Below, piece after piece: positions 29,403-29,810 of a DNA stretch of 63,019 nt (its first letter is position 1; every line of letters starts with the position of its first letter). The notes under the pieces were generated by a model, which saw only the letters and a program-made list of their open reading frames with translations, ran no database searches and had not been told where the DNA came from. Origin of the DNA: a virus; the IMG/VR virus record IMGVR_UViG_3300037089_000131. The stretch is one strand, 5' to 3'. A program made the translations under genes and the position numbers.

Positions 29403-29520
29403 GTATCCTCCTTGGGATGGGGGTTAGTTTCCCTCATATAGGAGGGCGGTAGTCTGGCCAGAAAAGTTTTTCCCAAATCCGCCGATATCCGGTGTATTAT
29501 ATAGCTGACAGGCTAGTGAA

Positions 29521-29597
29521 GACGTTTCCGGGACACGGGATAAAAACCGGTAGCATATACGGCATCGAAAGGTGCCGCAGGACGTTTCCGGGACACG
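29521..29597 (+). repeat. two exact 17-bp direct repeats GACGTTTCCGGGACACG spaced 60 bp apart
   Basis: Read directly at 29521..29537 and 29581..29597 inside a 400-bp non-coding region. Confidence 0.8.
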
Positions 29598-29739
29598 TTA
29601 ATCCCGGTGGTGGAGGGGAGCGAGTCGTGCTTGACACGGTACGCACCCCCAAACTTCAAAACGGGAGGTGTGTGATGTAGGAAACCTAGCTCCTTATTCA
29701 AACATCTAATCAAATTGCGCCGAATTGAGGTAAGGCATA

Positions 29740-29777
29740 AGAGGGGGAGCACAGGCTCCCCCTCTTTGTGTTTTTAT
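29740..29777 (+). terminator. rho-independent terminator / attenuator hairpin
   Basis: AGAGGGGGAGC-ACAG-GCTCCCCCTCT followed by TTGTGTTTTTAT. Confidence 0.6.
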
Positions 29778-29810
29778 CGGCAGCCAGTATTATGGGGTGG
29801 AGGAGCCACC

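Follow-up and report, generated by a model that had tools for sequence, protein, structure and literature searches.

In a 63,019-nt stretch of phage DNA (IMG/VR virus record IMGVR_UViG_3300037089_000131; this whole stretch is hereafter called the window), a gap of 400 bases separates a C1-family cysteine peptidase gene (28587..29402, − strand; Pfam PF00112, E-value 4.7e-8) from a gene that runs in the opposite direction (29811..30845, + strand). We suggest that this gap encodes a stand-alone, non-coding structured RNA, which is best seen as a divergent variant of the wcaG RNA, although it is not a member of that family by the Rfam criterion. We assign this reading a probability of about 0.55. 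The predicted RNA is approximately 271 nt long and extends from its promoter to its terminator (29507..29777, + strand). It has a fold z-score of -4.7 and is represented in nine homologues. The start, the end and the expression of the transcript are all inferred from sequence.

The nine distinct homologues are the window copy (W) and the loci L003, L012, L142, L020, L146, L014, L144 and L036. They were collected via the capsid protein encoded at 29811..30845 and, mainly, via the peptidase. The lineage comes from peat, wetland and wood metagenomes, and the GC content of the phages is 58%. Related loci are found on IMG/VR contigs as long as 238 and 317 kb, hence we place the locus in a jumbo phage lineage. 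The divergent peptidase gene, recognized already in the preliminary description of the window, is the sole neighbor kept in all nine homologues and always lies upstream of the RNA element; conversely, the peptidase homologues (71-78% identity) all have the element upstream of them. What lies downstream changes. It is the capsid gene in W and L003, a gene for a small signal-peptide-like protein in L142, and a tRNA-operon promoter directly after the element in six of the nine (L012, L020, L146, L014, L144 and L036). The element is thus not a leader of the capsid gene, and the earlier view of the gap as a regulatory leader of open reading frame (ORF) 29811 does not hold. In other relatives the capsid homologues have no comparable gap upstream. 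Over the RNA, W and L012 are 73.5% identical, compared with 55.6% at the four-fold degenerate sites of the adjacent peptidase gene.

The family appears to be narrowly distributed. Among 50,697 phage records, BLAST with the region as the query returned nothing similar, an IMG/VR search with the capsid protein as the query gave no match in one run, and exact-pattern scans for the hairpin core and for the start-stop described below had no matches. A universal module pattern found chance matches only in the metagenome and genome collections, except for L036. The element is absent from the bacterial and archaeal genomes and the prophages in the collections scanned.

Predicted pseudoknot modules of the 5′ half

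The 17-mer GACGTTTCCGGGACACG occurs at 29521-29537 and 29581-29597, and the two copies are exact and 60 bp apart, as had been described. The further copies for which a search had been proposed do not exist beyond these two in the 63 kb, even when three mismatches are allowed (0.17 expected by chance). The L014 locus carries its own exact 17-mer pair, CCCGCTCCCGGCTGCGG, of a different sequence and 56 nt apart (2752-2824, − strand), and it covers the same pseudoknot core, from S1a to S1b, of two modules. Since homologous modules are found in every relative and L014 has a pair of its own, the repeats are beyond chance.

Each module follows the scheme S1a-L1-S2a-L2-S1b, an A-rich L3 and S2b, and is followed by UGGUGGA or its variant and a hairpin. 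Module A (29521..29550) is parsed by eye as an H-type pseudoknot with S1a CGU at 29523-25, S2a CCGG at 29528-31, S1b ACG at 29535-37, the A-rich loop at 29538-46 and S2b CCGG at 29547-50. The hairpin CGGCAUC-GAAA-GGUGCCG after it (29560..29577) is specific to this phage; a GGGYG...CCCCC hairpin takes its place in the relatives. Module B (29581..29607), also parsed by eye, pairs ACGU at 29582-85 with ACGU at 29595-98 in S1 and CCGGGA at 29588-93 with UCCCGG at 29602-07 in S2. The 17-mer copies are the 5′ cores (S1a to S1b), the first of module A and the second of module B. The pseudoknot is followed by the UGGUGGA linker (29608..29614), which is kept in at least one module of each homologue, and by the long hairpin P2, GGGG-A-GCG-A-GUCGUG / CACGGU-A-CGC-A-CCCC (29615..29649). 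The interior of P2 is variable among the relatives, yet it always folds; a MAFFT-only alignment of these hairpins is unreliable.

Homologues have from one to three modules, with two in the window phage and a single one in L003. All 20 modules of the nine sequences fit one pseudoknot topology with standard pairs only. At the orthologous position, the outer S1 pair of module B is A-U, C-G or G-C among the relatives, and the neighboring pair is G-C, or G-U in one relative. The S1 cells are paired in 90% of cases, versus 38-54% when the partners are slid. S2 appears as CCGGG/CCCGG in some modules and as CCCGG(CU)/(AG)CCGGG in others. RNAalifold on five sequences yields 55 pairs, 11 of them with a compensatory change, the terminator included.

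The modules of the relatives share only about 10 nt (UCCGGGUCAC, UCCGGGUUAC), and each genome has the same variant in both of its modules. L003 has one hybrid module, as recombination between repeats would give. The perfect identity of the 17-mers suggests that they were recently made identical by recombination, and the perfect repeat is best explained by concerted evolution of RNA modules. The spacing of modules in the relatives is 53, 54, 55, 56, 70, 84 and 102 nt, therefore the 60-bp spacing has no conserved meaning.

Promoter, start-stop site and terminator

The sequence GTGTATTATATAG is present at 29493-29505, as noted previously, and the -10-like element GTATTATAT at 29494..29502 is conserved in the homologues. 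The core motif GTATTAT has 10 copies in the window, all on the + strand, versus 1.9 expected, and none of 100 shuffles reaches 10. Most copies lie just upstream of start codons or RNA genes. Those at window positions 3787, 14053, 39684, 52658 and 54529, among others, precede start codons by 5-30 nt; at 39684 no more than 5 nt separate the motif from the ATG, so that the mRNA there would be leaderless or almost so.

The window has 20 tRNA genes in two clusters, as found by ARAGORN and Rfam, and the promoter of the RNA resembles those of the clusters. Alignment of the promoter contexts gives a long upstream element, TGGCCA-GAAAA-TTTTYC-AAA...CCGG, at 29455..29493. This element of about 45 nt (TGGCCA, an A-run, a T-run, TTCC.GAAA and CGACTACCGG) is found at the 29494 site and at both tRNA-cluster promoters and is restricted to these three (29494, 30892 and 61279). 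The three promoters align over about 55 nt, whereas the promoters of protein genes share GTATTAT alone. Hence, we suggest that the RNA is driven by a phage ‘stable RNA’ type of promoter. Its predicted start is near 29507 (GACAGGCUAG...). In comparison with sigma-70 promoters, in which a TTGACA-like -35 hexamer lies 16-18 bp upstream of a TATAAT-like -10, the -10 TATTAT is good and the -35 position is occupied by CCCAAA here and by CTGAAA at the tRNA promoters; the site at 29494 is missed by a scan with the sigma-70 consensus. A modified promoter specificity is suggested by the upstream element, which recurs and is specific to the phage. An apparent promoter of the peptidase gene, GACTACCG..CCTATATGAG, was read by eye back-to-back on the − strand (29403-29460); it looks to be of the same family as that of the RNA, and the TGGCCA palindrome is common to both.

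The 3′ half of the RNA contains a perfect Shine-Dalgarno (SD) sequence GGAGGUG (29664-70), AUG (29675-77) and UAG (29678-80), so that the AUG runs straight into a stop codon. This ‘start-stop’ without a sense codon (29664-29680) is the only such site in the window. GGAGGUG-N3-4-AUG-UAG is invariant in all nine homologues, with UAA as the stop in L036; there the inserted A (UAG to UAA) also improves the small hairpin that holds the stop codon. That hairpin, UAGG-AAA-CCUA, and the anti-SD stretch ACAUCU (29702-07) together occupy 29678..29707. In the predicted energy folds the anti-SD stretch pairs with the SD. Its counterparts in the relatives are CAUCU, CACUU or CACC, each able to pair with GGUG, and the tail of the RNA that contains it is G-poor. 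No conserved upstream or longer ORF ends at the start-stop across the nine homologues.

The intrinsic terminator (29739..29777) consists of a 12-bp perfect GC-rich hairpin at 29739-29766 and the U-run TGTGTTTTTA. The strong hairpin with a T-run that had been placed at 29740..29777 is therewith confirmed. It is the top terminator-like site of the region, and a GC-rich hairpin with an immediate U-run is what defines an intrinsic (Rho-independent) terminator. In six of the nine homologues it is conserved with compensatory changes. A separate promoter precedes every unit that lies downstream, 10-40 nt away from the terminator.

We compared the best duplex of the terminator 5′ arm with upstream segments against shuffled controls. 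No antiterminator signal appears either in the post-stop segment (z from -1.5 to +1.1, six clade-1 homologues) or in the whole upstream RNA (z from -0.2 to -1.6, eight homologues). The same test gives z of -2.9 and -2.6 for the two tRNA-cluster leaders of the window and from -1.7 to -4.3 for leaders in five relatives. The terminator of the RNA element looks constitutive, because it lacks the signal which is present in the two tRNA leaders. When the entire RNA is paired with the tRNA leader by RNAduplex, the four genomes returned give only meaningless full-length duplexes (z from -0.2 to +1.7).

Relation to wcaG RNA, possible mechanism and alternatives

The wcaG RNA (Rfam RF01761), known from T4-like cyanophages and marine metagenomes, was described by Weinberg et al. 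in 2010 as a riboswitch candidate that is probably cis-regulatory, and was tied by them to exopolysaccharide and high-light genes (PMC2864571). It has been an orphan candidate since then, found almost only in marine cyanophages. At relaxed thresholds wcaG is the best Rfam match of L020 (28.3 bits), L146 (21.7 bits) and L012 (21.3 bits). In all three the match is full-length (1-98/98) and coincides exactly with modules A and B. When the gathering thresholds are applied, Rfam reports tRNAs only.

The layouts are alike. Both have two tandem similar halves made of GUUUC, a stem, an A-rich AAA(A/G) loop, a stem and GUGG(U/C)G. The wcaG consensus reads GUUUC-stem-loop(..AAA)-stem-UGGUGCGGA, a GGG..CCC hairpin, and GUUUC-stem-loop(..AAAGA)-stem-GUGGCG, and the set of features that marks the layout (two halves, GUUUC, GUGG(U/C)G and a central hairpin) is found in the element. 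The relatives have the GGG..CCC hairpin between the halves as wcaG does; the window has both halves with a different central hairpin. The GUGG(U/C)G tail, which follows each consensus half and is seen also in the wcaG of phage S-PM2 (GUGGUGGUG), resembles the UGGUGGA linker. In turn, the true wcaG halves fit the same pseudoknot, CUGG-UUU-CUUGUU-U-CCAG-UCAAAG-AACAAG-UGGCG, and S-SM2 has a compensatory variant of it (UCUG/CAGG versus CUGG/CCAG). A covariance model, R1, built from four family members, scores the window at 63 bits and the second clade at 23-25 bits. Of five cyanophage loci, it hits the true wcaG site in three (S-PM2, S-CREM1 and S-SM2), each in the correct place and on the correct strand, with scores of 14.6-17.1 bits that lie in the range of noise.

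The element and wcaG are also both carried by phages, and in several cyanophages wcaG lies in or beside tRNA genes. In S-CREM1 (L307) it is part of a tRNA island and precedes tRNA-Met by 47 nt; this phage also has a manA RNA, located between tRNA-Leu and tRNA-Asn. In S-CAM1 (L308) and S-CAM3 (L311) it is 19 and 30 nt upstream of tRNA-Gly, respectively. The S-SM2 copy precedes a nucleotide-sugar epimerase gene, 0.8 kb after tRNA-Ile/Met, and that of S-PM2 precedes an S-layer protein gene.

There are clear differences too. The stems are GC-rich and of CCGG type here and of UUGC type in wcaG, and the number of modules here ranges from one to three. The element is fused to the conserved SD/AUG-stop and, in six of nine homologues, to a terminator; neither follows wcaG in S-CREM1, the single cyanophage in which the sequence beyond the RNA was inspected. 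The hosts and the habitat differ as well, the present phages being of 58% GC and from peat and wetland. We use the label of a divergent wcaG-like variant because of the shared plan, the pseudoknot fit, the position beside tRNA genes and the sub-threshold matches.

The following sequence of events may be proposed. The long tRNA-type promoter would start the RNA near 29507. In the 5′ half the tandem modules would form pseudoknots, and this wcaG-like domain would bind a partner. In the 3′ half the SD/AUG-UAG would dock a ribosome that cannot elongate, and the anti-SD hairpin could mask the site. The intrinsic terminator would then end the RNA in six of the nine homologues. The RNA would thus be a stand-alone, translation-linked product of the tRNA programme of the phage, rather than a capsid leader. 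Of the readings offered in the preliminary description, that of a small RNA gene survives, as the element has its own promoter, a terminator of its own in six of the nine homologues, a changing neighbor, covariation and an identity above that of four-fold sites. That of a repeat-binding regulator site combined with an attenuator is not supported: no antiterminator is found, and the repeats behave as RNA cores.

Several observations weigh against this interpretation. All the wcaG matches are below the Rfam gathering score (42 bits), and there is no wcaG match (E-value ≤10) in the window or in the second clade (L144). R1 also gives a spurious match of 16.7 bits in a tRNA region, hence only the position of its wcaG hits is telling. 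The pseudoknots were parsed by eye, and covariation is thin with nine distinct sequences. L014 has no terminator, and L144 and L036 have the hairpin without the U-run, thus in these loci the RNA would enter the tRNA leader, which fits a cis role. Finally, the cyanophage wcaG copies, located 19-30 nt before tRNA-Gly or before protein genes, suggest a cis-acting leader.

The last points lead to the strongest alternative, a cis-acting leader or attenuator, in which the wcaG-like domain senses a signal and controls passage past the terminator into the downstream genes. Its regulated target would ancestrally be the tRNA island and in the window the capsid gene, and control would be direct or through ribosome loading on AUG-UAG. 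The element indeed shares the promoter type and the order of SD, ORF and then terminator with the two true tRNA attenuators of the window. A tRNA operon follows it in six of the nine homologues, the terminator is absent from L014, and that of L144 and L036 has no U-run. The location of bona fide wcaG copies, which precede either tRNA genes by 19-47 nt or protein genes, and their classification as probably cis-regulatory (PMC2864571) point the same way. However, every downstream unit has its own promoter 10-40 nt from the terminator, no segment competes for the terminator 5′ arm, unlike in the tRNA leaders, and the regulated gene would differ among the relatives. We consider a cis-acting leader the less probable of the two.

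The comparison with leader-peptide attenuators bears on the same question. The element has their order of promoter, SD, short ORF and terminator, and its promoter is of the type found at the two true attenuators of the window. It differs from them in the lack of a detectable antiterminator and in the 170-nt structured domain before the SD. Its ORF is AUG-stop only. As such an ORF has no sense codon, codon-specific stalling cannot sense anything, and we do not count the element among the leader-peptide attenuators. A terminated leader can nevertheless act as a functional RNA, as indicated for the attenuator-derived small RNA (sRNA) rnTrpL of Sinorhizobium (PMC6614838).

A bolder reading is that the element, located at the head of the tRNA island, is a ‘zero-codon’ member of a translation-monitoring, tRNA-supply system of the phage, in whose lineage tRNA clusters have leader peptides composed of the amino acids of the tRNAs behind them. 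This is speculative, and we regard it as rather doubtful. If it is true, the RNA would sense or titrate what sense codons are unable to report, namely ribosomes at initiation, the initiator tRNA, a release factor, or the 3′ ends of tRNAs held by its UGGUGG tails, and the orphan wcaG class would gain a function in tRNA and translation control.

A third possibility is that the 17-mers act at the DNA level, as operators or iterons bound by a phage regulator six helical turns apart. The core CGT(T/G)TCCGGGACACG is nearly palindromic, and the repeats lie between divergent promoters at exactly 60 bp in this phage. Nevertheless, we find this very unlikely. With the spacing of 53-102 nt, the copies in the relatives are not helically phased, as the earlier suggestion of binding sites about six turns apart would require, and the copy number varies from one to three, with a single module in L003. 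Symmetric positions change in a pair-preserving manner, including to G-U, which is a mismatch in DNA. Moreover, the promoter is upstream of the repeats, which are thus part of the transcript, no other copy of the 17-mer exists in the 63 kb, and the same layout is that of a known RNA motif.

Equally improbable is a trans-acting antisense RNA directed at the capsid mRNA via the phage-specific hairpin. Positions 29553-29567 are a perfect 15-nt complement of 30644-30658 in the capsid gene (E-value 0.013), and three more pairs form across a 2-nt bulge. The match exists only in this phage, the relatives having a different, conserved hairpin, and no comparable match is found in the other loci. Its chance probability is about 0.015-0.03, it is one of many comparisons, and the 15-mer is partly buried in the hairpin. 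It may be a chance match or a lineage-specific add-on.

Least probable of all is a small protein gene (ORF 29492-29680, 62 codons in this phage), or a mini array of clustered regularly interspaced short palindromic repeats (CRISPR) or a solitary-repeat anti-CRISPR RNA, which two identical repeats with a 60-bp period might resemble as repeat-spacer-repeat: the indels are not multiples of three, the frame that ends at the stop of this ORF is open for 57, 51, 8, 9, 2, 2, 19, 81 and 84 codons in the nine homologues (only 2-19 in five), the ‘spacer’ is conserved among four lineages instead of being variable, the repeats are of unequal length with no more than 10-17 nt in common (CRISPR repeats being near-identical and 24-40 nt long), and no CRISPR family of Rfam reaches even a weak score in the window. 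That this ORF is no real protein had been noted before. For the operators, the small protein and the CRISPR-like array alike, a direct test contradicts the reading.

The stand-alone RNA also has to be compared with other known systems. Riboswitch-containing sRNAs include SreA/SreB of Listeria and EutX/Rli55 of Enterococcus and Listeria, and CsrB/RsmZ are sponge RNAs with repeated motifs. All these resemble the present RNA in having a sensor-like domain or repeated protein-binding modules in an independently terminated sRNA. The repeated motif here is a pseudoknot with GGUGGUGGA, in contrast to the GGA-loop hairpins of CsrB/RsmZ.

In E. coli, start-stops are reportedly bound by ribosomes and, according to a retapamulin profiling study, can act as regulatory sites. 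The E. coli retapamulin ribosome profiling paper (bioRxiv 10.1101/520783) deals with such sites at length, and the term occurs 31 times in its full text. Like the E. coli sites, that of the present RNA is an SD with a start codon that abuts a stop codon. The difference is that here the site belongs to a stand-alone phage RNA, in which a riboswitch-like domain precedes it, and is kept in nine diverged phages.

ROOL and GOLLD are large structured RNAs that phages and prophages encode ‘often near tRNA islands’ (bioRxiv 10.1101/2024.12.08.627333). The element is likewise phage-encoded, structured and located by tRNA genes. It is, however, much shorter (about 270 nt versus about 580 to more than 800 nt) and has a start-stop site, which ROOL and GOLLD lack, and there is no sequence or structure match to them here.

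Other identities were considered and rejected. Neither ARAGORN nor Rfam detects a transfer-messenger RNA or tRNA-like RNA; both report the 20 tRNAs alone, which lie in other parts of the window. T-box, preQ1, ykkC-III and other riboswitches give no Rfam match even at E-value ≤10. A Chi-like GGTGGTGG cluster has neither strand bias nor enrichment in the window (5 versus 6 copies per strand). That UGGUGG pairs with the 3′ ends of tRNAs, or with CCACC within the phage tRNAs, is retained as no more than a speculation; the tRNA regions have no complementary sites. Neither a box C/D or K-turn motif (UGAUG) nor a mimic of helix 45 of 16S rRNA (GUAGGGAACCU) is conserved across the homologues.

A divergent wcaG-like relative is present in unrelated giant soil phages, beside tRNA genes as several cyanophage copies are. 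The tRNA position and the start-stop point to a link with tRNA or translation rather than with sugar metabolism. The family also adds another set of sequences, very different from the first, from which the fold and the partner may be worked out, and a conserved SD-AUG-stop in a non-coding phage RNA is a clean natural case for the study of start-stop function.

tRNA clusters with apparently codon-matched leaders and the capsid gene

The two tRNA clusters of the window are sorted by content. The first (31163-33123) has only class II tRNAs, those with a long variable arm, two for Tyr, six for Leu and three for Ser, and the second (61546-62733) has tRNAs for His, Trp, Arg, Asn and Lys. In front of each cluster (30892-31162 and 61279-61545) lie a promoter of the shared type, a short leader ORF rich in just those amino acids that the tRNAs behind it carry, and a terminator directly adjoining the first tRNA. 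The leader ORF 31006-31109, MKNLSSNSLSSLSYSNSLLSVLVLSDGWSDGWEG, contains all six Leu codons, five Ser codons and Tyr, and precedes only tRNA-Tyr, -Leu and -Ser. The leader ORF 61383-61478, MRNRKPNPMQWQHKRNNFRP..., precedes tRNA-His, -Trp, -Arg, -Asn and -Lys.

A promoter scan of IMG/VR found 16 sites in related contigs, with two further leader/cluster pairs: MLTITMPHTQTQTTISSGGGACLA before tRNAs for Ile, Thr and Gln, and MLALHITEVDVIAAVAAGCEGD... before tRNAs for Val, Gly, Ala and Asp. The related loci used for the leader/tRNA pairs are L293-L306, L161, L012, L020, L146, L014 and L144. In the 4×4 table of leader against tRNA amino acids, the diagonal alone is enriched (p = 3.7e-7, 0.018, 3.4e-4 and 2.0e-3). 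The distal part of the leader ORF is complementary to the terminator 5′ arm in both window leaders, and for the first leader also in five relatives; the classical antiterminator/terminator arrangement was verified for the two window leaders. In IMG/VR, a pattern back-translated from the peptide of the second leader matched no relatives.

These features suggest that leader peptides control the tRNA operons by ribosome-mediated attenuation, with the supply of tRNA set by demand. Our literature searches revealed no precedent for leader-peptide attenuation of tRNA operons. If confirmed, the tRNA-cluster attenuators would represent direct supply-and-demand control, and they may matter more than the RNA element itself.

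The gene downstream of the element (29811..30845, + strand) encodes the major capsid protein with a Tat-like (twin-arginine translocation) N-terminal extension of about 45 residues. It has a separate promoter-like GTATTAT (29787-93) and a ribosome-binding site GGAGGAG (29800-06), both on the + strand. All six capsid homologues are assigned to phrog_2522, and their profile matches PDB 6wkk_A, ‘Gp27 major capsid protein’, with an E-value of 1.6e-24; the AlphaFold2 model of the protein has a mean predicted local distance difference test score (pLDDT) of 33. The preliminary description of a Tat-like protein gene agrees with the look of the N-terminus; the protein itself is the major capsid protein. 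The M(E/R)RRxFFQxLLGGTAAxLGA motif (29811-29945 in the window) is full in three of the six homologues and degenerate in two more. As the body of the protein is a capsid protein, export is implausible. The extension is possibly a propeptide, and the gene for the C1 cysteine peptidase adjoins.

Two minor observations concern the first tRNA cluster. The tRNA-Tyr at 31405-31489 narrowly passes the Rfam threshold for tRNA-Sec, an artefact of class II tRNAs. A 160-aa ORF (32118-32600) that separates tRNA-Leu(cag) from tRNA-Leu(caa) has weak matches to HNH endonucleases, below the Pfam cut-offs.

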